Assembly: GCA_009783355.1 (NCBI GenBank)
Contig: WRHH01000004.1
Coordinates: 32,852-96,851, forward strand
Length of the DNA: 64,000 bases
Reading direction: 5' to 3'
From: Synergistaceae bacterium
GTDB lineage: Bacteria > Synergistota > Synergistia > Synergistales > Aminobacteriaceae
Part shown: piece after piece, positions 29,032-43,238 of the stretch
Layout of the letters: the number at the start of each line of letters is the position of its first letter
How positions within the stretch are numbered: position 1 is the stretch's first letter
Position numbers and translations under genes: made by a program
The notes under the pieces: model-generated
What the model was told of the DNA's origin: nothing
Database searches by the model: none
The model's input: the letters and a program-made list of their open reading frames with translations, nothing else

Positions 29032-30318
29032 TTACCACGGTAAAGGGATTATTTCAAAAGCATTTGCAACAGGGCCGACCGGCATGACCACCCTTCTTCT
29101 CACCGAGATAGCGCCTTCCTCTTTATTAAAGTAGCTCGCCGGGTAGAACCTGTCATCTGACGATGTGCTTCCACTATGATCAGGTTTCCCGGCCGGATAA
29201 TAGGTTATATCCTCAATAACGGAATCGTCAATGCTCTGCCACTGTCCCTGCCTTTTGGGCGTAAGCTGCTCCCTCTCCGTGTAGCCGGGGATGTTCGCGT
29301 TCCAATACGTGAACATACAATTGGTGAAATAGAGGCTGCCGTCGGATTCGCGCCAGTTGCCCGCCTTAAGCGTCATAAGCGAAGCCATGGACATGGAGCC
29401 AACACGGGTATATGTGACCCGCACTTCCTTAAAAGTGCCGTCGTCCTTGAATTCAAAATATATGTCGCCGCCGCCGGCAAGTCCATATTCGCCAATCACA
29501 TGAATCGTGCCGCCCCAAATACCGAAATATTTTTGTTCCTCTGCGGTAGTTGTTCTTGTGGTCAGCGGCTTTACAGGTTTCGGCGGCGGGGGCGCGGCCT
29601 GTTTTTCATGCGCCAAAGGAATATGAACAAAAGCGTTTGCAACAGCCCCGGTCGGCATGACCACCCTTCTTTCGAGGCTGAATGAACCGTTCTCACCATT
29701 GACGTAGCTTGCCGGGTATATACGGTCATATTCACTTTTGGTTCCCGATTTAGTGGGGGCGGACTCTCCGGCGGGGCAGTAAAAAGCGTCCAATATTACG
29801 ACATCGTCCTCGCTTTGCCACTGCAATATGGTCATTGGCGTGATTTGTTCCGCTGCTTCCACGTAACCGGGGTTAAACGTATTCCAGGACGTGGTCATAC
29901 GGTTGGTTAAATAAAGGTTACCGTTGGATAAATGCCAGCTGCCCGCCGCAAAAGTCATTAAGTTGGCATGATACGATAACGGCCTCTCTGACAGTTCCCG
30001 CCGGACGATGCCGACCAATACCTCCTTGAACGTGCCGTCGTCCTTGAGCTCATAATATATTTCCCCTATACCGCTCAGTTCGTCGGGATATCGGTCTATG
30101 TATCTGTAATAGTCCGTGTATCCACGGACGATGCCGCCCCAAATACCGACGTATTTTTGTTCTTCTGCGGCAATCGTTCTTGCAGTCGGCGGTTCGGTCG
30201 CTCCCGGGCTTCCTGCCCTCTGCGGCGCCTGCGCGTCCTGCGCAATGGCGGCGACCGCCGTGGCTGCGAAGATACCAGATGAGATTATTAGCGCGAGGGT
30301 CAAGATTTTCTTTTTCAT
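29032..30318 (-). CDS. Secreted protein made of two tandem homologous domains of about 190 aa each (unknown function)
   Basis: Signal peptide MKKKILTLALIISSGIFAATAVAAIA. Repeats begin TTAEEQKY(V/F)GIWGG and end RRVVMP(T/V)G(A/P)VANAF. Confidence 0.6.
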   Translation of the reverse strand: MKKKILTLALIISSGIFAATAVAAIAQDAQAPQRAGSPGATEPPTARTIAAEEQKYVGIWGGIVRGYTDYYRYIDRYPDELSGIGEIYYELKDDGTFKEVLVGIVRRELSERPLSYHANLMTFAAGSWHLSNGNLYLTNRMTTSWNTFNPGYVEAAEQITPMTILQWQSEDDVVILDAFYCPAGESAPTKSGTKSEYDRIYPASYVNGENGSFSLERRVVMPTGAVANAFVHIPLAHEKQAAPPPPKPVKPLTTRTTTAEEQKYFGIWGGTIHVIGEYGLAGGGDIYFEFKDDGTFKEVRVTYTRVGSMSMASLMTLKAGNWRESDGSLYFTNCMFTYWNANIPGYTEREQLTPKRQGQWQSIDDSVIEDITYYPAGKPDHSGSTSSDDRFYPASYFNKEEGAISVRRRVVMPVGPVANAFEIIPLPW

Positions 30319-30563
30319 TAGATGTGATTTCCTCTCTGTATTGATCTTTCCATTTTATATCATAAACACGCAGATGGGCGTACTGCTGTTGTTCCTATGC
30401 ATGCGTCAGGTATAGATAGAACGCTGATAAGAAAAATTCTGAAAATTATGATATGTCTATTGACGACTATAACAACAGAGTATAAACATTTTCTGTGGAG
30501 TAGTAAATATCTTTCGTAATCGGATCCGAATTCATGTTGGAAATTCTGCTGTATTCGTGGTTG

Positions 30564-31496
30564 TCAGACCACTAAATAGCCTTTTTTCGACGCGACAGAT
30601 ATTTTCGCTTCAATACCTGAATTGAATCGTAAAAAATCATGCTCAATTCCATCGCTGAAAATTACCCCGCCTTCCGGCATCTGCGAAATCACCAATAATG
30701 GAGAGTTGGTAATTGTCCCAAAAACAATACCTGCGCCTGTGGTATTGCTGTGGAAAGGTTCGCGTACCGAGTAATATAGAAACTCGCTGTCCCATTCGGG
30801 GAAAGTAATGCTAGAGTTTATGATTTTGCCGGTAATAACTCCGGCTATTCTGCTGGCGCCTGCAATTACGCTTTTTAACCAGCCGGTTGAACCAAGCCCC
30901 GTGGAAACAATAATTCCGCTAGATGATTGATTCTCCTCCTGTCCGTTGATTTTAATTTTGTATCTTGCCGAAACATGGGTTTGCCTTCCGATAAAAAAGT
31001 CGTTAACGGCCAATAAGCTTTGCCCATCATTCAGTTCGGCTATTGCCATTGAAATTTCTTTTTTTTGCCTGCGATTACCTAGCACTTCCCGAACAACGAC
31101 GGGCACATCAGCACAGCGAAAAGGGAGCAGCACACCGTCATATCTGGCAGGATCGGGGTTTATGGCAATAAGCGGCTGACCATTCAGGTATTTCAGCGTG
31201 TTTGCTACTAAGCCGTCCTGACCGATGACAACGACTATGTCATCTTCACTGAACATGAAATTGGGCGCGTATTCTCTATCGATTAATTGAACCCGAGCCA
31301 AATTTTTCAAGTGGTTAATTGAAGCGAAAACCGATTCTTTATAAATCCTGTCCTCTTCAACATACTCCTTGATATCTCCGCCCATTTTTTCCACATAAAA
31401 GGCTGCTTGAGCCATATTATTGAACTTTTTTACCAATTCATCCGCGCGAGTTGACCTTGTTATGACGACGATTTTGCGTTCGGGTACATAACTCAT
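30564..31496 (-). CDS. ATP-NAD kinase-fold protein (COG3199-like)
   Basis: VVVIGQDGLVAN (GGDGT-like), NDG, and SSGIIVSTGLGSTGW (the DGlivSTPtGSTAY equivalent). Start overlaps the flotillin stop (ATGA). Confidence 0.55.
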   Translation of the reverse strand: MSYVPERKIVVITRSTRADELVKKFNNMAQAAFYVEKMGGDIKEYVEEDRIYKESVFASINHLKNLARVQLIDREYAPNFMFSEDDIVVVIGQDGLVANTLKYLNGQPLIAINPDPARYDGVLLPFRCADVPVVVREVLGNRRQKKEISMAIAELNDGQSLLAVNDFFIGRQTHVSARYKIKINGQEENQSSSGIIVSTGLGSTGWLKSVIAGASRIAGVITGKIINSSITFPEWDSEFLYYSVREPFHSNTTGAGIVFGTITNSPLLVISQMPEGGVIFSDGIEHDFLRFNSGIEAKISVASKKGYLVV

Positions 31497-32509
31497 GGCG
31501 TCATCATTTCACGAATCAAATCGGGGGTGATATTCAATTGGCCGATTCTTTCCGCTTTACCCGCCAGATTCTGGAACGCATTTGCTATTAGAGTTTGCGG
31601 CTGCATGCCAATCACAGTCAATGCTTTGATGACGTCAATATCCACGCCGCCTAACGCGTTCATCATTGCCTTAAGCTCATACGCTTTAGCGTCTGCTTCA
31701 GCTTTGCTGTTTTCAGCGACAAGCGCCGTCAAAATCTTTCTTTTTTCTTCCAGTTTGATTTCCGCATCAAGCTGCTCATTTTTCAATTCATTTTGCCTTC
31801 TCATTTCAGCTTGTTCGGCATTGAGCTTAGTCTCGCGAACCTGCCAGCGTTTGTTTTCAACGGCGATTTCCGTATTGTACTCGTTTTCCTTGACGCCGCG
31901 CTCTTGTTCAATGGAGGCGTTTCTACGTTCATAAATAGCGTCGTCGGCCATTTTTAAGATTTTTTCTCTGGTTTCCGCCTCTAGTGCCCTTGAGGTTTCT
32001 TTGTTTGGTAGAACTGACAGAACCGTCAAACCCATGATCTCGATACCCAGCAATTGAATTTCTTCATTTCGCCGCAAGTCTTCAAGAATGCTCTTTGCTA
32101 GAGTTTCACTGGAGCGGATGGCGTCAGAAAGTTTTAAACCCTCCAAATGCTTTTTTGCCATGACGCGAACCAGATTACTTATTCTTACGGGAAGCTTTTC
32201 CGGGTCGTCGGATATGTAACTCTTTTTCCAACCTCTGACATCCAGTGTGAAATTAAGGAGTTTGATTAAATTTTTGTTATCTACTATACGATATGTGACC
32301 TGGCCTTGAATGGAAACCGACTGAAAATCCGCTGTGGCTTCTTCGAACATGAAAGGACAGTCGTCGCTCGCAATAGGCGCCACGACAATTGATGTGGTGG
32401 GAGCGTAGTAAAAAAAGGAAATTCCCGCGCCTTCTTTCACTACATGACCGTTTTTGAATTTAAGAACGTACTCGTTTGGTTGAAATTTGACGTAATGAAG
32501 CCCGAACAT
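31493..32509 (-). CDS. SPFH/band-7 flotillin-like protein (YqiK-like)
   Basis: SPFH domain N-terminus, and a long Glu/Ala/Lys-rich coiled-coil with a flotillin C-terminal pattern. Confidence 0.7.
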   Translation of the reverse strand: MFGLHYVKFQPNEYVLKFKNGHVVKEGAGISFFYYAPTTSIVVAPIASDDCPFMFEEATADFQSVSIQGQVTYRIVDNKNLIKLLNFTLDVRGWKKSYISDDPEKLPVRISNLVRVMAKKHLEGLKLSDAIRSSETLAKSILEDLRRNEEIQLLGIEIMGLTVLSVLPNKETSRALEAETREKILKMADDAIYERRNASIEQERGVKENEYNTEIAVENKRWQVRETKLNAEQAEMRRQNELKNEQLDAEIKLEEKRKILTALVAENSKAEADAKAYELKAMMNALGGVDIDVIKALTVIGMQPQTLIANAFQNLAGKAERIGQLNITPDLIREMMTP

Positions 32510-32531
32510 GATAATCCCTCCTAAGAATTAA

Positions 32532-33251
32532 TTATTTTTTTGTGTATAACTTTGCCGGACGATGCCCTTTGTCGCTCGTATACTTATCAGTTTCCTGAAC
32601 AAGGCCAATAATCTTAAGCCGAAAATTAGCCGTTGGAACCTTTTTCCAAAGAATCGCTTCATATGCGTTTTGAAGCTGAGTCAAAGTGAACTCGAGAGGT
32701 AATAAATGGAAAATTACGTTGCTGTATAGGATTTTAGACTGCAGTCGCCCTAAAGCCATTTTTACGATACCGAAGTGATCAAAACCAAAATCCGGTTCGG
32801 TTATTATGAGCTCCTTGTTCTGGAATACCGGTCTCCGGTCTGATGTATTCTGCACCGTAAACCATACCGCATCGCTTTGATATTTTTTTGACTCTTCTTC
32901 GTTCATAAGGCCTAAATATGATATGGAAATCACTCTTGCGCGCGGATCCCTGTCTAAATCGCAAAATGTGTAAAGTTGTTCTAAATAGCACCGGTCAACA
33001 TGTGACTTCTCGGAAATTTTTCTGCATATATTGTCGCTTGGCATCTCGTCAATATTCAAAAAACCTCCCGGCAAACACCACCTGTCCCGATACGGTTCAA
33101 CCGGTCGCTTGTACAACAGAACCCTTAAATAGGTATCCGGCAGCTTCCTATAACTGTCCGCTTCCTGTGTCTTTATGGTAAAAACAACTGCGTCGGTGCA
33201 AACAAAAGGGTGTTCATAATTATATATACTGCCCACTATCCACGCCTCCAT
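32532..33251 (-). CDS. nrtR: NrtR-family regulator (Nudix-like domain plus C-terminal winged helix)
   Basis: Nudix-like CLPGGFLNIDE. C-terminal FTLTQLQNAYEAILWKKVPTANFRLKIIGL...RPAKLY is typical of the NrtR wHTH. Confidence 0.65.
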   Translation of the reverse strand: MEAWIVGSIYNYEHPFVCTDAVVFTIKTQEADSYRKLPDTYLRVLLYKRPVEPYRDRWCLPGGFLNIDEMPSDNICRKISEKSHVDRCYLEQLYTFCDLDRDPRARVISISYLGLMNEEESKKYQSDAVWFTVQNTSDRRPVFQNKELIITEPDFGFDHFGIVKMALGRLQSKILYSNVIFHLLPLEFTLTQLQNAYEAILWKKVPTANFRLKIIGLVQETDKYTSDKGHRPAKLYTKK

Positions 33252-34271: not shown

Positions 34272-34420
34272 AAAATAATATGTGGGACGGTAATCCCATA
34301 ACACTTGAACAAGGCGGCATTGACAGGATTTTCAATACCGTCAATCTGTTTAACAAAGATAACGCGCATATTTTTCGGCGGCAAAGCAACAACGCGAATA
34401 GATGGAGGGTATTATATTTG
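34272..34420 (+). pseudogene. Duplicated 3' fragment of the phzF-like gene
   Basis: About 145 bp, roughly 90% identical to 36228..36365. Encodes MWDGNPITLEQGGIDRIFNTVNLF. Confidence 0.7.
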
Positions 34421-34508: not shown

Positions 34509-34802
34509 ATGCTGACAATTGATTTTATAAAAGAGACAGTAATTCCATTAGCAAAAAAATATGATATTGTAAAAATCGATTTATTCGGTTCATACGCCAG
34601 TGGAAAGGCAAATGATAAATCTGACGCGGACTTCCTTGTTACGTTCAAAGTCGAAGTACCATCCATTTTTAGAGTTATGGGATTTAAGCATGAACTTGAA
34701 ACCAGTTTGAATCATCCCGTTGACATAGTTACGTTGCCGCAGTCGCGACCAGAAAAGCTGCTTATTGAAGAGGTGGTTAGTATATATGAATATGCGGGAT
34801 AG
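34509..34802 (+). CDS. mntA: Nucleotidyltransferase antitoxin (MntA-like)
   Basis: GSYASGKANDKSDADFLV (GSxxxGxxxxxSDxD). Confidence 0.7.
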   Translation: MLTIDFIKETVIPLAKKYDIVKIDLFGSYASGKANDKSDADFLVTFKVEVPSIFRVMGFKHELETSLNHPVDIVTLPQSRPEKLLIEEVVSIYEYAG

Positions 34803-35112
34803 AACACATATTGACAGGATTAAGAAGGAATTATGCTTTATTAAAAGAACTACAGGACAGATTAGCAAAGAAAAGTTCTTATCAGATGACGTTTTTCAGC
34901 ACGCGATTTCAATGTCCTTAATAACCATCGGCGAATGCGCAAATCATTTATCAGAAGAATTCAAAGAACACCATCCGCAAATACAATGGATACAAATAAT
35001 TGCGGTCAGAAATATTGCTTCACATGGTTATTGGCAGCTTGACATGAAGCAGATATGGAAAGCCGTCGAAGAAGACATACCCGAACTTATGGAATTCTTT
35101 CTGAAATTTTGA
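34765..35112 (+). CDS. hepT: HepT-like (DUF86/HEPN) toxin
   Basis: RNIASHGYWQLD (Rx4HxY motif). Overlaps mntA by 38 bp. Confidence 0.7.
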   Translation: MKRWLVYMNMRDRTHIDRIKKELCFIKRTTGQISKEKFLSDDVFQHAISMSLITIGECANHLSEEFKEHHPQIQWIQIIAVRNIASHGYWQLDMKQIWKAVEEDIPELMEFFLKF

Positions 35113-35483
35113 ACATCAATGGCAAAGGAAATGGCGATGAGTGAGTGGGATAAAAAGTAGCTATGGAAATGATTGCTGTTAATCTGTTTTCGTTGGTCGG
35201 GATTTTAAGAAGCTGTTTTTCCGTTTGCATTGCATCCAACTCACACATGAAGATGATGTGTTGCGGCTTTGGTTATGGGTAATGAATATATCCCCCTTGA
35301 ACACCTCTCGAAATCATGATTCTTGCGGCGAAGTCGATTCCTCCTTCACAACCGCTAAACTTATAACCCAAAGGTTTCAATATTCTAATTATGCTGTTTA
35401 TCTGCGGGGAGTGGACAGCATTTTCAAGCCTTGCGATATTGTTGTATTATAGTATTGGCATGTATTTGGGGGAGAGTGATTTT

Positions 35484-36365
35484 ATGAAAAAATATGATTA
35501 CAAAAAAGTTGACGCTTTTACTTCCAATAACTCGTTAGGAAATCCTGCGGCTTGCGTTTATTTAAACGAAGGACAGTCATTGGCTGAGGATGAAATGCTA
35601 AGCATCGCGAAACAGCATAAAGGTTTTGTTTCGGAAGTTGTTTACTGCACAAATAATGGCAGTTGCGGTTTTGACTTGGCGTATTATTCATCGGAATGCG
35701 AAGTCCCGTTTTGCGGCCATGGCACAATTGCATGTATGTATTCGTTGATAAAAGATTCTCCTGAATTGTTGAAACAGTCGGAGATAATTATTCATACCCG
35801 AACCAAAGGAAGCCTCATAATTTACAATAAAATAACTGAACAGGACGCAGTTTACATTTCAGCGCCCGAGCCGGTATATTCATCTGTTCCTATATCTTTA
35901 GAAGCTATTATTGATTGCTTAAGCGTGGATATATCGGCGATTTCAGACGCTTATCCTGTTGATTTTATCGACGCGGGAAACAGAACTCTAATCATACCGA
36001 TAAGAGGCTTGGAAGACGAAATAAACATCTTCCCGAATGAGCAAACCTTAAAAGAATTCTCGTTGAATAACGGCATAGACGTTATTTTGATTTTCTGCAC
36101 AGAAGTAATGGACGAAGCGCATTTTGCGCATACGAGGGTGTTCGCGGCGAAATACGGCTATCTTGAAGACCCCGCTACAGGCTCTGCAAATAGCGCTTTC
36201 GGCTATTATCTTCTGAAAAATAATATGTGGGACGGCAATCCCATAACACTTGAACAAGGCGGCATTGACAGGATTTTCAATACCGTTAATCTGTTTCACA
36301 AAGATAATAGAATATTTTTCGGCGGCAAAGCGACAACGCGAATAGAAGGGGTTTATTATATTTAA
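35484..36365 (+). CDS. PhzF-family isomerase-like protein
   Basis: KVDAFTSNNSLGNPAACVYL, FCGHGTIA. Start at MKKYDYK, with a GGGGGAGAG RBS. Confidence 0.75.
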   Translation: MKKYDYKKVDAFTSNNSLGNPAACVYLNEGQSLAEDEMLSIAKQHKGFVSEVVYCTNNGSCGFDLAYYSSECEVPFCGHGTIACMYSLIKDSPELLKQSEIIIHTRTKGSLIIYNKITEQDAVYISAPEPVYSSVPISLEAIIDCLSVDISAISDAYPVDFIDAGNRTLIIPIRGLEDEINIFPNEQTLKEFSLNNGIDVILIFCTEVMDEAHFAHTRVFAAKYGYLEDPATGSANSAFGYYLLKNNMWDGNPITLEQGGIDRIFNTVNLFHKDNRIFFGGKATTRIEGVYYI

Positions 36366-36457: not shown

Positions 36458-37456
36458 TTAGTTTATCATACTTTGTATTTGTTCCACGGGCAAACCTGTA
36501 CTCTTAGTGATTATTTCCAGTGGTATTCCATTAAAAAGAAGATTCCTTGCCACTTCTTCTTTACCTTTTACAAAGCCTTTTTCCATGCCTTTTTCCATGC
36601 CTTTTTCCATGCCTTTTTCCATGCCGCGCTCTTCAGCCATTCTTTCTTCCACTTGTTTAAGAAAAGGCTCATACATAAGCTTTCCCTCCTTATTCAGTTG
36701 TTGGCAGTATTCCCAATATTGTTTCTGCAACATTTCATCTTTCAGATTTAATATACGTATTATAAAAAGTACAAGGTCGCGTTTCTCGTTCTTGTCCCAG
36801 CTCCGTTCAGCGAGAAGTTCCGTCAACGTTCGCAGGTATTTAAACTTCTGAATCTCCTCTTTTGTTTTCTGCGCACACATTGCAGCGTAAAGGGCTAGGT
36901 CTATCGGGTTGTCGCTTATTCGTAACTCGTCGTCGTTGAGTTCCATCAAAACGAGATTATTATACCTGTAAACAATTTCCGTGCCAAAATTGGAATGAGA
37001 ATAAAACCGCTCATCTTTTCTATGACCGCTTGTAATGATAGCCAGAGCCACTGGATTTTTCCTGTAATGCGCATATATCAGACAACAGTAATGAAACATT
37101 CTCTCGGCAAGATTGCCTCCACCAGAACCTTGTTGAGCCTCACAATGGAGGAGTATCCACTTATCATTCCCGTTTTTCAATGGCACTTCAAGTATGAGAT
37201 CGGCAAAATGCGGGCTCGTATGAATTGACGGGTCTCCCGTATTCAGGATGTCACGAAATTCCTTATCGAGAAGCCGGTGAGACCGGTTCGTATCAACTGC
37301 ATTGTAAAGCTCCGGGAGCGCCCTTTTAAGCAAATAGTAAATGAAACGGTCTATTAAATCCTTCCAATAACTATCGTAATCGAAATATTCCTGCTTTTCG
37401 GAGCCGTTATAATATGCCCCCGTATTCGCTATATCTGTGATGTTCTCTGCCGTCAT
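36458..37456 (-). CDS. Rpn-family (YhgA-like) PD-(D/E)XK recombination-promoting nuclease/putative transposase
   Basis: N-terminal PD-(D/E)XK core. C-terminal DUF4351-like tail with (GMEK)x4 encoded by a 12-nt tandem repeat at 36576..36625, and ARNLLFNGIPLEIITKSTGLPVEQIQ. Confidence 0.65.
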   Translation of the reverse strand: MTAENITDIANTGAYYNGSEKQEYFDYDSYWKDLIDRFIYYLLKRALPELYNAVDTNRSHRLLDKEFRDILNTGDPSIHTSPHFADLILEVPLKNGNDKWILLHCEAQQGSGGGNLAERMFHYCCLIYAHYRKNPVALAIITSGHRKDERFYSHSNFGTEIVYRYNNLVLMELNDDELRISDNPIDLALYAAMCAQKTKEEIQKFKYLRTLTELLAERSWDKNEKRDLVLFIIRILNLKDEMLQKQYWEYCQQLNKEGKLMYEPFLKQVEERMAEERGMEKGMEKGMEKGMEKGFVKGKEEVARNLLFNGIPLEIITKSTGLPVEQIQSMIN

Positions 37457-37512
37457 AAGCTTTCACCTCTGAATGAACCATTATAACACGTTTCTTCTAA
37501 AAACACCGGAAT

Positions 37513-37582
37513 ATCACTGAACAGGACGCAGTTTACATTTCAGCGGCAAAGCGACAACGCGATTAGGGGGGTATTATTATTG
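37513..37582 (+). pseudogene. Internally deleted remnant of the phzF-like gene
   Basis: 37515..37544 matches 35838..35867, then joins directly to a match of 36322..36360. Confidence 0.6.
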
Positions 37583-37843
37583 AGTTCGGAAAACTATACT
37601 GCTCAATTCTCAATTTCAGGCGGGCACATTATTGTTGCCTTAATTGTTGTCATTCTTCAGACAGCCTTTTGCTGATGTATAAAGCATTGTTCAAAACTCT
37701 TGTGATATAGACCGTTTCAAACCTGATTACAAAGAAAACTATATAATTATCAACAATCAATGACTAAAACCACTTGGAACACTCAGCTTCTGAACCTATT
37801 ATCTATATTCGTTACGTCATATATTCAAAGGACAACTCTCTTC

Positions 37844-38704
37844 TCATGATCCATTTTCAGCTTCAGTACCCCCACGCTGTATGAAATCAATTAGCTTTTT
37901 CGTAATGATATAAGGTAAAGCAGGTTTATCTATCTCCTTGATAACCTTTAAATATAAATCAGAGTCAATTGAATGTCCCAGTTTTTTTGCTGATTCCTTT
38001 AAGCGTTTTAGTTCATAATTTACTATTTTGTTAGTAATTTCGCGCTGTCTGCCTAGATGCAGCTTGTTTTGACTCATAATTAGTTCGTCGCGCATGACAT
38101 CGAAAAGAAATTTGTCGCGGTTTAGCCAATCTGCTAATATCTGCTCGTAATTGGTTATAATTAAGCTCTTTGTCATGTTATCTGATGCTACTGCGCATTG
38201 TAAGGCTGCATATATATAATTCACACATTCATCCACACCAGAACAAATATTTCTAATATATGACCCCCATTTATTCGATTGAAGCTGCGGAATACTGAAG
38301 AAAAACTCGTCTTGATCCATTTTAAAAAAATCGTGAACATCTGTCAGTATTTTCCTATTTTTGGAAAAAACATCAGCATTGACATTATGGCAATAAACAT
38401 ATCGTAAAGCATTTATCTTTTTAACATACTCTTCAACATAATCCATCTTTTGGTCGTTCAGGGAACCTTTATTATTCAGCATATTAAGTAATTTTTTTAT
38501 ATTAGGCATACAGTCAAAAAACAATCCATAGATATTAGTCACGGCGCACCAAAACAGTCCTTCGTCATTGCTACACTGATGTGCTTTTGGCGCGTAATAG
38601 GCAGCGAAAAAAAGACGCGGTGATAAATGGGATGCCATATATATATTTATTTCTTCAATTTTGCGTGTTGTAAATGCAACCCCATCTATGTAATTATCAC
38701 TCAT
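37844..38704 (-). CDS. Hypothetical 286-aa protein translationally coupled to the SIR2/NTPase gene
   Basis: Start ATG overlaps the upstream stop by 8 bp. No recognisable motif. AT-rich codon usage. Confidence 0.6.
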   Translation of the reverse strand: MSDNYIDGVAFTTRKIEEINIYMASHLSPRLFFAAYYAPKAHQCSNDEGLFWCAVTNIYGLFFDCMPNIKKLLNMLNNKGSLNDQKMDYVEEYVKKINALRYVYCHNVNADVFSKNRKILTDVHDFFKMDQDEFFFSIPQLQSNKWGSYIRNICSGVDECVNYIYAALQCAVASDNMTKSLIITNYEQILADWLNRDKFLFDVMRDELIMSQNKLHLGRQREITNKIVNYELKRLKESAKKLGHSIDSDLYLKVIKEIDKPALPYIITKKLIDFIQRGGTEAENGS

Positions 38705-41700
38705 TCGCTTGACCGTCTTTCGGAGTCAGCCCACGGAAAGCGGCAAGTCCCATGTAACCTAATCCAAGCTGAAAATCGTCGCATGACACACCACTTTTTA
38801 TTTCAATTCCTTTTATATTCCATTTGCGAAAATAAATATCCCTACCACCGTTATTATCTCTACTTATTCTTCCAATGCGGACATAATTACCGCTTAGAAC
38901 ATTATCTGGTGTGTTTTGGTTAAAATTACCGCTGAATTCTAAAGGCTTTCCTTTTTCGTCGCAAAGAATATGTTTTGTGCGGATACGATCATTGCCCCGT
39001 TGCTCAACTAATTCGGTACAATTGCGTATTTTGTTGATTGTTTGCCCGTAAGCACTGTATTGTTCTAGATGTAGGTTCGCTAATGCCATGACATAAAAGA
39101 ACAACAGCGTTTTTGGCGTGCAATCTTGATTTCCGCAAAAATCACGGCATACACCGAGTATATCTTTCCATTGGTCGTTTGTCATCGCAGTAAACTGTTC
39201 TTCAGCTGTAAAAATCGGCGTTTTATTATATGCAATCCATTTTAGTTTTAACCGTTGCCTCTGGCAGATATGATCTTTTATTGTTATTACAGCATATTCA
39301 TTCTCGTCATAATATTTCGCGCATATTTCACGGCATCTTAAAGCTTGGTCATTGTTGAATGCTTCAATTCGGTTTTCATACTCTCTTTGGCGTTTAGTAA
39401 TTCCAGCAGTCTCCATTTCTCTGGCCACTTTCAAATAGACAGCATATGGATTTCCATCAATAATGAGGCTATTAATATATTCATCACTTAAGGAAGAATC
39501 TATCTTTCTATAAATCCCTTCGGCAGGATTAATAAAATTCGAATCTTGTGCAACATAAACATACTCATCCTGAGTCTTTCGTATCAAATTATCAGCGGAA
39601 GCAAGCAATTCAACTGTTTTGGCCTGCGGCAATTTGTCGCAAAATTTCAAGGTAAGCCATAATTTAGTGCTGATAATATACCCGTTATCCGGTGCGTAGC
39701 CAAGCTGCTCGTCTAAATCCTTACTAAGTTCCATATATTCTCGTTCATCATATTTGTTTTCATACTCCATCAGATTTATGCAACAGTTTACCCTTTCAAC
39801 CACCAAGCTTGTAAGTAGACGTGACGAAATTTGTCCATGTCTCTTTTCAATTTGGATGGCTTCGTTGCAAATTATAACAGCATCACGTAACATTTTCTGT
39901 TTGTTGTCGTTTATGTGTCTATTCTCACTTTCTAGCATTTTTATATACTCGCGGATGTATGACGCCTCTTGCACCACGAGTGGCGATAATAGTGATCCTT
40001 GCTCTCGTGATTCGCGTAACGCATCAATTATCTTTTCATATTCCTCGGATGTCAAACGCTGAAAATCCTTGGAGTTTGGACCTATCCTAATCAACAACTT
40101 TACAATTAAGTTCACCTCGGTTTTATCATTGTAATTCAGGGTCATTATAATATTCACAATCTGGTTAACTTCTTCAGACTCAATTATCTTTTGTGACCGT
40201 AAATAAATCATTGCTTCGCCACGGGTTCTGAACCGTACAGCGTAATCGGAAAACTCATATTCGTCATATGTCAGATAAATCATGGATGAAAGCACTTCCT
40301 TTACCCGGTGATCATATAGATTTATCAGACGCAGTATAAGCGAAAAAGGCATGAAGAGGTCATATTTTGTGCATATGGCCGTGTTTACTAGTGCTTTCTT
40401 AATGTTATTAATAATTTTATCTTCGTCGTTATTTGTTTGCCCTTTTTCGTTTGTAATAAATCCTGAATTTTTTAAGGCTATTTTTATCTGGCTTGTTTCG
40501 TATTTTTCAGCAATAAGCTTTTCGACAAAATCTTTACTAGAATATTGAATTACATTCTCAATATAATTGCCCATACCTTTTTCAATCCCAAGTCGCGTGT
40601 CTGTGAGTGAGGTGTATAGGAACAGCATGAAATTATTACGCAATTCTTCTGATTTTTTAAGTTGTTCAATTACTTTGTCAATATACACCTGTTCCCATCG
40701 CGCTTTGCGACTAAGAATCTGCTTGAGATGGTTGATTTCAAGAGAATCATCACCCATATTCAATGATTTATTTGTTTCAAGGAACTGAAAATAGGTTTTT
40801 TTTACACTTTTTGTGATTTGTTGCGTCATATGCTCATCTATGCTTTCGTATTTGTCTGCGTTTTCATATGCAGTAAAAACAAATTGGACATTACGCGCGC
40901 GGGTATGCTTTATGTAGTTACATAAACTCCTGCATTTTAGCATGTCGCTGGTAAAAGCCGACAAATCCCAAATGACAAGTGAACACTTAGCTCCAATTTT
41001 TTCAAGCTGGTGTAAAACATTATCTAAGACATTCATTTCACCATCAGCATTCTCAATCCTTCCGCTTGGAGACATCATAACTTCGCGATGAAAATCTATG
41101 TCCTTTTTGTTTATAAAGATAACAGGGTATTCTTTTTCGTAAAAAACGCGGTATGCTAAGTAAGCAACTGCAACACTTTTACCACTACTTGGTTCTCCTT
41201 TAAGACATATCGGATAGTTATCTTGCTTTTTTTCTTCAGTACCGGGATTCTTTAGACCTTTATTCACTCGTTTGAACAATTCTTCATCGTGAGCTCGCAC
41301 TAAATTAAACTTATTCTTGTAACCGTACCATGCTGGGGAAGTGGTGCTCTCCTTTAAAAAACTGGAAAATTCTGTTTCTATGTATTGTGGAAGTACTATG
41401 CGCCTGTTAATTTCTTCTTCAGTCAGCAATGTTGCAAATTCATTGAAGCGCACCAAATCCTTTTTATCTATAAAGCAAGCTTTGCCAGCTACGTACACTT
41501 TTGTTTTGTCGCTTTCGTAATGAAGGCTATAGGAATTGTCATACTCGTCATTGACTGAGTCATCGGGTACGGTAAATTCTTCGCTTAAGCATAGTATTGG
41601 GGTGGGATCTTCGTTCTCCATGTCTCGTTCGGGTAATATTTCTTTTACTAGTATATCTTTGACACCAAAAAAGATAACAGAGCTGTCACGTTTTACACTA

Positions 41701-42152
41701 TAGAGGAAGTCTTGCATTTCGCTTGTAATAAATGCATCGTTTTCGGAATAGCCTACAAAGATGAAACTACCGCCATTCTTTAGCCTGTCATCAAGAACTC
41801 TTTCTAAAGCTTTTCGGGCTGTCTTTTGGTCGCGTTGAGATGGTTTTGCTCTTGATACTGATTCAATTTCCGGTGTTCCGAAAAGATAGCATATTTTTAG
41901 GTTTCGTTGCTTAGGAAAGCACGGATCGTCGATGGACACCAATCTCACTTGTCTGTATGAAGGAAGGGCTTTTGTTACGGCGTTACACAACGCCAAATCT
42001 CGTTGCGAAGTTATAATGAGCCACCATTTCTGCTTGAGGATGCGCAAGTTTTCTTCATTTGCTAAGTCAAAACTCTCGCCGACAAACAACACGTGCGGTT
42101 CTGAATCTAAGTTGTCCAGAATTCTACTGGAAATATCCTTTACGTTTTGCAT
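38697..42152 (-). CDS. 1151-aa protein with an N-terminal SIR2-like domain, a central P-loop NTPase and a C-terminal helical region (candidate antiphage defence NTPase, SIR2-STAND-like)
   Basis: N-terminus HVLFVGESFD...LIITSQRD...IFVGYSENDAFI (SIR2_2-like). Walker A GEPSSGKS near residue 320, and hhhhD Walker B LVIWDLSAF. The remaining roughly 700 aa are helical. Confidence 0.65.
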   Translation of the reverse strand: MQNVKDISSRILDNLDSEPHVLFVGESFDLANEENLRILKQKWWLIITSQRDLALCNAVTKALPSYRQVRLVSIDDPCFPKQRNLKICYLFGTPEIESVSRAKPSQRDQKTARKALERVLDDRLKNGGSFIFVGYSENDAFITSEMQDFLYSVKRDSSVIFFGVKDILVKEILPERDMENEDPTPILCLSEEFTVPDDSVNDEYDNSYSLHYESDKTKVYVAGKACFIDKKDLVRFNEFATLLTEEEINRRIVLPQYIETEFSSFLKESTTSPAWYGYKNKFNLVRAHDEELFKRVNKGLKNPGTEEKKQDNYPICLKGEPSSGKSVAVAYLAYRVFYEKEYPVIFINKKDIDFHREVMMSPSGRIENADGEMNVLDNVLHQLEKIGAKCSLVIWDLSAFTSDMLKCRSLCNYIKHTRARNVQFVFTAYENADKYESIDEHMTQQITKSVKKTYFQFLETNKSLNMGDDSLEINHLKQILSRKARWEQVYIDKVIEQLKKSEELRNNFMLFLYTSLTDTRLGIEKGMGNYIENVIQYSSKDFVEKLIAEKYETSQIKIALKNSGFITNEKGQTNNDEDKIINNIKKALVNTAICTKYDLFMPFSLILRLINLYDHRVKEVLSSMIYLTYDEYEFSDYAVRFRTRGEAMIYLRSQKIIESEEVNQIVNIIMTLNYNDKTEVNLIVKLLIRIGPNSKDFQRLTSEEYEKIIDALRESREQGSLLSPLVVQEASYIREYIKMLESENRHINDNKQKMLRDAVIICNEAIQIEKRHGQISSRLLTSLVVERVNCCINLMEYENKYDEREYMELSKDLDEQLGYAPDNGYIISTKLWLTLKFCDKLPQAKTVELLASADNLIRKTQDEYVYVAQDSNFINPAEGIYRKIDSSLSDEYINSLIIDGNPYAVYLKVAREMETAGITKRQREYENRIEAFNNDQALRCREICAKYYDENEYAVITIKDHICQRQRLKLKWIAYNKTPIFTAEEQFTAMTNDQWKDILGVCRDFCGNQDCTPKTLLFFYVMALANLHLEQYSAYGQTINKIRNCTELVEQRGNDRIRTKHILCDEKGKPLEFSGNFNQNTPDNVLSGNYVRIGRISRDNNGGRDIYFRKWNIKGIEIKSGVSCDDFQLGLGYMGLAAFRGLTPKDGQANE

Positions 42153-42556
42153 GATTCACTCCTCATTCTACAAAATTAGTTTTTCTTATTTATAAACTGT
42201 ATAGCTGTATAATATTTTTAAGAAAGTTATAAAATTCCAGATAACGACTTAATTATTATAGCTTAAAAATTCAGTTTATGTTTGAATGCTTATAATCTCT
42301 GGAAGCAGGTTGTCGATAAGTCCAAAAAATCCAGCATTTCTATTTCTCTATTCAACACCCGTTTTTTCGTGTGCTATTTCGTCATAACAACCCTGCTTTC
42401 TGGTGTTCTTCAAGCTCGCGTAAGTAAGAGCTGAGATCTGCCTGATACTTCAACTAAATCTGGTATTGTAGCTGACGGATTGTATTTTAATATATCAAGA
42501 ATTGAATCTATATTTTATAATAATATCAAATACTCTGACACAAAGGAGAGTGCGCC

Positions 42557-42778
42557 ATGGATCGCAACTTTGCTCAAACTAAAAAGATGACTCTATATCA
42601 CGGGAGCAACATGGCTGTTGAGAATCCCGTTATTATACATTCCCCGAGAACTCTTGACTTCGGAGAAGGTTTTTACACCACTACAAACAAACTGCAAGCG
42701 GAGATATTCGCACAAAAAGTTTTGGGCAGGAGAAAAACGGGCGTTGCGATCGTTAATGTCTGCACTGTAAGGGGGTAA
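42557..42778 (+). pseudogene. DUF3990-like protein, apparently truncated at 73 aa
   Basis: MTLYHGSN...[12 protein letters not shown]...QAEIFA matches the DUF3990 N-terminus. Ends prematurely just before the next gene. Confidence 0.45.
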
Positions 42779-42782
42779 AGGC

Positions 42783-43022
42783 GTGGAAAAGGATAAATTT
42801 GCTGCTATGATGGAAATGCTCGTTCCACAGGTTGTAGCGCTTATTGCGGAACGCAGGAACGTGACGACGCTTGACGCTATAAAACTTTTCTATGCGTCCG
42901 CGCTCTATGAGCGTCTTGAAGTTGAAGAAACCAAGCTGTGGCATCTTAGCGCCCTAACACTATATACTTTATTCGAAGAAGAACTGGACACAGGCAAAAT
43001 CACCTACCCCGAGGAGGCGTAA
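42783..43022 (+). CDS. DUF3791-like protein
   Basis: 79 aa. MEMLVPQVVALIAERRNVTTLDAIKLFYASALYERLEVEETKLWHLS pattern. Confidence 0.5.
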   Translation: MEKDKFAAMMEMLVPQVVALIAERRNVTTLDAIKLFYASALYERLEVEETKLWHLSALTLYTLFEEELDTGKITYPEEA

Positions 43023-43025
43023 TCG

Positions 43026-43238
43026 GTGGATAGCAAAACAAAATTCTTGATATATTGCATGGAGATATACAAGCGCGAAAAAGAATTGAATGGAGTGCAG
43101 GTCTTGGATCATTTTTCGAGGTACAACCTGTTTAACTACGTGCTGGAATTCTACGAAATATTACATATTCATGGTGTTTCCTACATATTGCATGACATAA
43201 ACAATTACATCTCCGAGCAAAATAGAGCATATTCATAA
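43026..43238 (+). CDS. DUF3791-like protein (second paralog)
   Basis: LIYCMEIYKREKELNGVQVLDHFSRYNLFNYVLEFYEILHIHGVSYILHDINNYI. Confidence 0.5.
   Translation: MDSKTKFLIYCMEIYKREKELNGVQVLDHFSRYNLFNYVLEFYEILHIHGVSYILHDINNYISEQNRAYS

Follow-up and report, generated by a model that had tools for sequence, protein, structure and literature searches.

Avs5 (AVAST type 5) is a SIR2-STAND system that acts by hydrolysis of nicotinamide adenine dinucleotide (NAD+) (PMC12931631, PMC11897194), and a nucleoside triphosphatase (NTPase) of the nSTAND3 type has been reported for PaAvs5 and EfAvs5 (PMC12931631). A Sir2-like domain is also present in SAMD9L, where it has been proposed to be a scaffold, with a distinct ribonuclease (RNase) module, AlbA_2, as the effector; in that proposal, assembly is under the control of the Sir2-like, NTPase and OB domains, and killing is left to the separate RNase domain (bioRxiv 10.64898/2026.02.01.703102). 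The locus described here lies at 37844-42152 of a 64,000-nucleotide stretch of DNA from a Synergistaceae bacterium (contig WRHH01000004.1), referred to below as the window, and consists of a large gene for a protein of 1151 aa and a partner gene for a protein of 286 aa. The large protein carries a SIR2-derived domain that has lost its NAD-site residues, placed before a P-loop NTPase, and the partner is strictly paired with it. The reading preferred here, with confidence somewhat below even, is that the two genes form a self-contained, horizontally mobile conflict cassette, probably anti-phage and acting by abortive infection, with the partner as effector.

The large protein and Avs5 share their domain order: an N-terminal SIR2 fold comes first, a P-loop NTPase second, and the long C-terminal region that follows is helical. 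They differ in that the SIR2 catalytic motifs have been lost in the cassette family, most members of which also do without the insertion that forms the SIR2 small domain. Avs5 is moreover a single-gene system, whereas the cassette has an obligate second gene and gives no match to the Avs5 models of PADLOC. Judged from the sequence, NAD+ hydrolysis as in Avs5 is not expected in the cassette.

SAMD9/SAMD9L and the bacterial SAMD9-like Avs6 and Avs9 are also among the closest known systems, and the division of labour proposed for the cassette, a scaffold sirtuin with a separate effector, is the one proposed for SAMD9L. The putative effector of the cassette is a polypeptide of its own, and the Walker A lysine is kept in the large protein where SAMD9L has His741. 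The layout described for SAMD9 (Sir2-like, P-loop, helical, OB; PMC5445408) is plausible but unproven for the large protein. No AlbA_2, PNP or SAM domain is present in the window protein or among the Pfam families listed for 42 of its relatives, and profile searches of the PDB with full-length alignments of 3 and of 42 sequences gave no sequence-level match to SAMD9 chains.

The kind of system, an Avs/STAND-type sensor with a toxic output, is a known one. The cassette is set apart by its nSTAND5-type NTPase, its degenerate Avs5-type sirtuin and an obligate partner from a family for which Pfam, NCBIfam and PADLOC have no model and the PDB and BFVD no fold match. It is not named in the literature searched, which did not extend to the 589 clades of the Nature 2026 STAND survey and in which no paper uses the term "nSTAND5".

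A degenerate sirtuin and its NTPase

The homology of the N-terminal domain was established with a profile built from the N-terminal domains of 42 family members and searched against the PDB. The profile matches KomC, a SIR2 NAD+ hydrolase (NADase), at E 5.3e-6, a third sirtuin at E 1.3e-3 and, at E 1.4e-5, entry 9JAP, the filament structure of EfAvs5 (PMC11897194), with residues 5-143 aligned to residues 41-259 of EfAvs5. The latter alignment is in register with all four SIR2 motifs of EfAvs5: the family motifs LF.G.x.[YF][DS], W..V.T[ST]xxD, L[FY]G and GY[DS]..D fall on VFVGAGFSK, WRRIYTTNYD, HING and GYSMYD, respectively. Three SIR2-like motifs of the window protein, LFVGESFD (residues 22-29), IITSQRD (46-52) and FVGYSEND (132-139), coincide with the stretches aligned to GAGxS, TTNYD and GYS..D in SIR2 NADases of known structure. 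The Pfam model SIR2_2 (PF13289) reaches only a sub-threshold E of 0.013 with the window protein alone. These alignments make the N-terminal domain a genuine homolog of SIR2.

The residues of the NAD site have nevertheless been replaced. In the window protein, GAGxS has become GESFD, TTNxD has become TSQRD and HG/NG has become FG, such that Q50 stands at the position of the TTN asparagine, F91 at that of the histidine or asparagine, and ESF in place of AGxS. Both the asparagine and the His/Asn residue are absent in 118 of 139 relatives, and the Avs5-like pair of TTN and NG is kept in only four. In PaAvs5-1, immunity is lost when the TTNxD motif is mutated (N110A or D112A) and likewise when the NG motif is (N153A/Q) (PMC12931631). 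The SIR2-like domain of the large protein is predicted to be inactive as an NADase. The initial annotation had recognised a SIR2-like domain and had taken it as the effector of an effector-NTPase-sensor arrangement; the homology stands, and the layout with an active SIR2 effector is not supported. That a few members retain a vestigial TTN and NG argues for descent of the family from an Avs5-like sirtuin, with activity lost later.

The insertion of about 65-80 residues that forms the SIR2 small domain is absent from most members, including the window protein. Long-form relatives of 1200-1300 aa (for example, P0055-P0139) have a helical insertion of about 60-80 residues between the first two SIR2 motifs, at the site of the SIR2 small domain, and this subgroup has a motif series of its own, LFLGQ.Y ... 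W.G..TS..D ... L....LFG.

A P-loop NTPase follows the SIR2-derived domain, as first annotated. Pfam nSTAND_NTPase5 (PF25199) matches 38 of the 42 relatives, with a best E of 2.7e-11, over the region from WYGY through an arginine to the Walker A motif, and nSTAND3 (PF20720), the model for the NTPase of Avs5, is touched by 11 of the 42, weakly (best E 6.9e-4). The NTPase would thus fit nSTAND5 better than the nSTAND3 of Avs5, and the resemblance to Avs5-like proteins noted in the initial annotation is not supported in this respect. PF25199 is a domain model only, without a described system or function. When the PADLOC models, including those for Avs5, were run against the 42 relatives at E<=0.1, weak P-loop matches alone were returned.

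Walker A K325 and Walker B D396 are invariant in all 139 aligned members, as are W275, R286, R734 and W995. R642, A647, the GPN at 691-693, E735 and E786 are nearly invariant, E646 is also conserved, and conservation runs evenly along the whole protein. The invariant F-R642-T-R-x-E-A motif adjoins a possible winged-helix element at about 575-655.

A profile restricted to the NTPase domain and searched against the PDB gave midasin AAA+ as the best match (E 3e-12), then FtsY, ClpB/Hsp101, zeta toxin and dynein. Midasin AAA+ is far ahead of any STAND or NLR protein as the nearest solved NTPase sequence, despite the Pfam assignment to nSTAND5.

A link to MADS was considered and rejected. The PADLOC model mad8 matches 15 of the 42 relatives (E>=1.5e-4), with the matches confined to the P-loop region, residues ~290-490. 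MADS is an eight-gene, methylation-associated operon; no mad operon is found nearby, and the MADS paper gave no link.

The region beyond the NTPase was approached with an AlphaFold2 (AF2) model built from a 3-sequence alignment, which was not used for fold searches. Its mean predicted local distance difference test score (pLDDT) is 47.6, with values of 55-85 only at residues ~580-860. The model is helical from about 450 to about 1045, with a helix/beta-hairpin element at about 575-655, and beta-rich in the last ~100 residues; the long and mostly helical C-terminal region of the initial annotation is in agreement with this. A profile of the C-terminal domain gave nothing significant against the PDB; CspB was reached at E 1.2, across the entire cold-shock domain. 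In an hhalign comparison with a CspB sequence entered by hand, the E was 0.014 and the probability 3%. The homologies to PDB entries needed deep, domain-restricted profiles: a full-length 3-sequence profile found no match in the PDB, and a full-length 42-sequence profile found weak matches only.

A strictly paired partner

Members of the family were collected in several ways. A word-indexed search gave only two relatives, 39% and 33% identical to the large protein. A HMMER search with a three-sequence profile of 1.84 billion cluster representatives (50% clustering) gave 501 relatives at E<=1e-3 and 222 at E<=1e-30, nearly all of them full-length at 1100-1300 aa. A profile search for the partner yielded eight homologs, each directly downstream of a homolog of the large protein, and another 23 loci came from scanning GTDB genomes and JGI metagenomes. 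By local hmmsearch, a partner homolog lies immediately 3' of the large gene in 27 of 27 loci with downstream DNA, equivalent to 21 non-redundant pairs; the count leaves out three loci (L010, L011 and L029) that end at a contig edge. The paired loci reach down to 26% identity in the large protein and span three phyla, Bacillota, Synergistota and Deferribacterota. The hosts are anaerobes of the gut and of fermenters, and these phyla are poorly covered by defence catalogues, which are mostly based on Proteobacteria. In the other loci, the two genes either overlap, by 1-35 bp, or are separated by 2-5 bp, and no third gene is conserved across the paired loci. Megablast against complete E. coli genomes found nothing similar; therefore, this is not an enterobacterial element.

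In the window, the ATG of the partner lies inside gcgaATGAGTGA, which results in an 8-bp overlap with the stop codon of the large gene and is consistent with translational coupling of the two. Co-transcription of a strictly conserved partner with the large gene is supported. The initial annotation had proposed a coupled partner and had considered an accessory or effector role for it. An optional accessory role is not supported: the partner is obligate, and it is the likelier effector.

The AF2 model of the partner is entirely helical, with pLDDT 78.6 and a predicted template modelling score (pTM) of 0.78. No substitution is seen at P39, L61, D64, R101, H106 or N107 across the 21 non-redundant partners. 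No match to the partner was found in Pfam, PADLOC or NCBIfam or in sequence-profile searches of the PDB, Foldseek gave no fold match against the PDB or BFVD, and hhalign of the partner with the HepT of the window returned a probability of 0.2%. Like the HEPN RNase effectors (HepT, Cas13, Csm6 and Abi-type proteins), the partner is all-alpha, with R-x4-H and then a polar residue. Its R-x4-H-N resembles the HEPN signature; this is a clue from the motif and does not demonstrate membership of the superfamily. The partner is possibly a HEPN-like RNase. A possibly similar pairing has been recorded in Sphingomonas, where neighbourhood strings of the form '??+HEPN-> ??+SIR2+??+STAND->' place a HEPN gene next to a SIR2-STAND gene (PMC8195603 supplementary file 17); by analogy, this may be a distant counterpart of the cassette.

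The surroundings of the pair are variable. Directly 3' of the P0002 pair are genes for a Dcm methylase, DUF4928 and Vsr (Vsr in L002), then CTD11, MC7 and DUF2326. The 99 neighbour open reading frames (ORFs) of eleven further loci include McrBC, AbiH, Vsr, ResIII, SWI2_SNF2, PLDc_2, reverse transcriptases and a HpaII endonuclease, together with a type I restriction subunit, DUF3427, AAA_13, MC2, DDE and IS66 transposases and serine recombinases. The neighbourhoods are not conserved and differ even between close homologs. The defence context suggested initially is thus recovered in the homologs, in that restriction-modification, McrBC, AbiH, reverse transcriptase, PLD and ABC-3C genes recur. 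An aggregated PADLOC scan of the neighbours was swamped by redundant GajB/UvrD models. As read from the neighbour lists, the pattern points to an accessory cassette that moves and frequently comes to lie within defence islands.

In L001 (14724-19824) and L002 (7310-12410), the genes that follow the P0002 pair make up a compact defence island of several systems.

A proposed mechanism and its rivals

In the proposed mechanism, the 1151-aa protein would be both sensor and switch, by way of a nucleotide-binding, STAND-like NTPase of the nSTAND5 type, and recognition of the trigger would fall to the long helical region and the C-terminal beta region. The SIR2-derived domain has lost the NAD-site residues and would therefore not act as an NADase but, in keeping with the proposal for SAMD9L, serve as a scaffold for oligomerisation or docking. 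Once activated and assembled, the large protein would turn on its translationally coupled partner of 286 aa, in which the invariant R-x4-H-N and aspartate may form the catalytic site of a toxic output. The likeliest output would be HEPN-like RNA cleavage that arrests the infected cell. A more specific form of the proposal, a "split SAMD9", appears rather unlikely as a whole: an ancestral Avs5-type chassis, made up of SIR2, STAND NTPase, helical region and OB domain, would have turned its sirtuin into nothing but a scaffold, and killing would be carried out by a separate and new nuclease family, HEPN-like or of a new fold, that is activated in trans.

The domain homologies, the loss of the SIR2 catalytic residues, the strict pairing of the genes and the variable defence or mobile-element surroundings are observed; a role in defence, the sensing of a trigger, scaffolding by the SIR2-like domain and action of the partner as an RNase effector are inferred. 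Several points weigh against the conflict-cassette reading. No model of PADLOC (2.0.0) or NCBIfam matches either window protein (PADLOC at E<=1), in line with the initial annotation, which could place the large protein in no named family with confidence. The inactivity of the SIR2-like domain is predicted from motifs only, and PaAvs5-1 tolerates N replacing H (PMC12931631). The nSTAND_NTPase5 match of the window protein itself, at 15.9 bits (E 0.011), stays under the 34-bit cut-off, and the domain-only NTPase profile matched no solved NLR/STAND or Avs protein in the PDB. The label "STAND" is a family-level assignment from one Pfam model and should be read as such, because the PDB matches are of the AAA+/SRP type and the window protein falls below the cut-off. 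A winged helix, helical repeats and an OB fold may be present in the large protein, for which the AF2 model is too poor. Five other loci have mostly housekeeping neighbours, with TniQ, a T4SS coupling protein and UvrD-like helicases, and neither tblastn against PLSDB plasmids and GenBank phages nor a scan of IMG/VR found a homolog.

A first rival explanation, along the lines of the initial annotation, is that the large protein is an Avs5-like, single-chain SIR2-STAND protein whose own SIR2 domain depletes NAD+ on activation, with the partner as a mere accessory. The domain order and the homology to the EfAvs5 SIR2 domain agree with this, and a few relatives keep TTN and NG like PaAvs5-1 (PMC12931631). 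The window protein, however, has Q50, F91 and ESF at the positions concerned, and N110A and N153A/Q abolish immunity in PaAvs5-1 (PMC12931631); with both residues missing from 118 of 139 relatives, a partner kept more strictly than an optional accessory would be (27/27 loci) and no Avs5 match in PADLOC, this explanation is very improbable. Alternatively, the two genes could be a defence pair in which the partner is a sensor, an adaptor or an antitoxin-like inhibitor, and toxicity comes from the NTPase of the large protein, from nucleic-acid binding at its C-terminus or from an unrecognised domain at 190-255. In favour of this, no enzymatic fold could be detected in the partner, toxin-antitoxin and chaperone pairs typically show tight translational coupling as well, and the large protein is evenly conserved with many invariant charged residues, such as R642, R734 and E786. 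Such a division of roles is unlikely, given that the invariant polar residues of catalytic type in the partner (R, H, N and D) are gathered in two short motifs rather than dispersed as at an interface, and that Pfam, PADLOC and NCBIfam detect no effector domain in the large protein.

The cassette might also have no part in immunity. Mobile DNA could carry it as a selfish module for addiction or stabilisation, or the large protein could be a STAND-like ATPase with housekeeping or regulatory duties and the partner its cofactor. Genes for transposases, recombinases and toxin-antitoxin systems adjoin it, several loci have housekeeping neighbours, and there is no experimental or curated annotation as defence. 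Neighbourhoods that differ between close homologs, the recurrence of restriction-modification, Abi and McrBC genes nearby, a patchy distribution across phyla and descent from an Avs5-type SIR2 domain speak against a non-immune role, which is considered quite unlikely.

If the conflict-cassette reading is correct, the immune NTPases of the Avs5/SAMD9 lineage would gain a two-component branch. The cassette would also be a natural case of a defence sirtuin that has become a scaffold without catalysis, as is now proposed for human SAMD9L, and its partner would stand for a new, compact family of effectors, in which the four residues of the candidate active site are easily tested by mutagenesis.

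Layout and surroundings in the window

Both ORFs lie where the initial annotation had placed them, and the 8-bp overlap and the motifs that it quoted are present (Table 1). The motifs are no product of chance, as seen from the invariance of K325 and D396 and from the alignment of the three SIR2-like motifs with solved NADases. The large protein is identical to the "hypothetical protein" FWF87_02265 and the partner to FWF87_02260, both from a Synergistaceae metagenome-assembled genome. A GGAG Shine-Dalgarno sequence lies 7 nt 5' of the ATG of the large gene. A consensus scan of the locus for promoters and terminators gave no excess over shuffled sequence; therefore, the promoter is only putative.

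Table 1. Features of the two-gene locus, in window coordinates
Feature	Coordinates	Strand	Description
Large gene, 1151 aa	38697..42152	(-)	ORF and translation; pseudo-SIR2, nSTAND5-type P-loop NTPase, helical region, small C-terminal beta domain
Partner gene, 286 aa	37844..38704	(-)	All-helical (model); family without Pfam, PADLOC or NCBIfam model; candidate effector
Overlap of large and partner genes, 8 bp	38697..38704	(-)	Stop codon of the large gene over start codon of the partner, ATGAGTGA
Upstream region, putative operon promoter	42153..42270	(-)	GGAG ribosome-binding site and AT-rich stretch with TATAAT-like box, read from sequence
SIR2-derived N-terminal domain, residues 1-190, predicted inactive	41583..42152	(-)	Motifs G25-ESFD29, T48-S-Q50-R-D52, L90-F91-G92, G134-Y-S136
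P-loop NTPase core, residues 256-450	40803..41387	(-)	Invariant W275-Y-G-Y and R286, Walker A, Walker B
Walker A GEPSSGKS, residues 319-326	41175-41198	(-)	
Walker B LVIWDLS, residues 391-398, with D396	40959-40982	(-)	
Helical region, residues 451-1045	39018..40802	(-)	AF2 secondary structure; helical repeats follow possible winged-helix element at ~575-655
C-terminal beta-rich domain, residues 1046-1151	38700..39017	(-)	Conserved DFQLGLGYMGL at end; possible cold-shock-like OB fold
Partner motif A-L-R101-Y-V-Y-C-H106-N107-V	38381..38410	(-)	R-x4-H-N invariant, resembles HEPN Rx4-6H

The AT-richness noted earlier is confirmed, with a GC content of 0.355-0.39 across 37-43 kb and of 0.45-0.53 in the flanks. 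The cassette lies in this low-GC DNA, and its neighbours include a MntA/HepT toxin-antitoxin pair at 34509-35112. Most of the neighbours named in the initial annotation are recovered, including toxin-antitoxin genes, DUF3990/DUF3791 and gene remnants; the 332-aa gene that it called "Rpn transposase", at 36458-37456 (-), has no Pfam match at E<=0.01, so that name is putative. This gene contains a 12-nt tandem repeat (x4) at 36553-36624 that encodes GMEK repeats near the C-terminus.

The remnants include the 3' end of a PhzF-like gene (35391-36365, +), which is present three times in direct orientation, at 34272-34419, 36217-36363 and 37510-37584. The first copy is 90-97% identical to the end of the intact gene, whereas the third is composite and degraded. 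The MntA/HepT pair and the intact gene separate the first two copies, and the 332-aa gene follows before the third. The triple 3' end looks like the outcome of successive insertions or duplications at the end of the gene. In the right flank, 42557-43238 is a decayed DUF3990/DUF3791 pair, in which the DUF3990 ORF is a 73-aa N-terminal fragment (1-57 of the 152 profile positions), followed by an unassigned 79-aa ORF and an intact DUF3791.

Further from the cassette, the minus strand of the window at 29032-33251 carries two genes without a Pfam match (29032-30318 and 30564-31496), an SPFH/Band7 gene (31493-32509) and a gene for an NrtR-like Nudix/winged-helix regulator (32532-33251).

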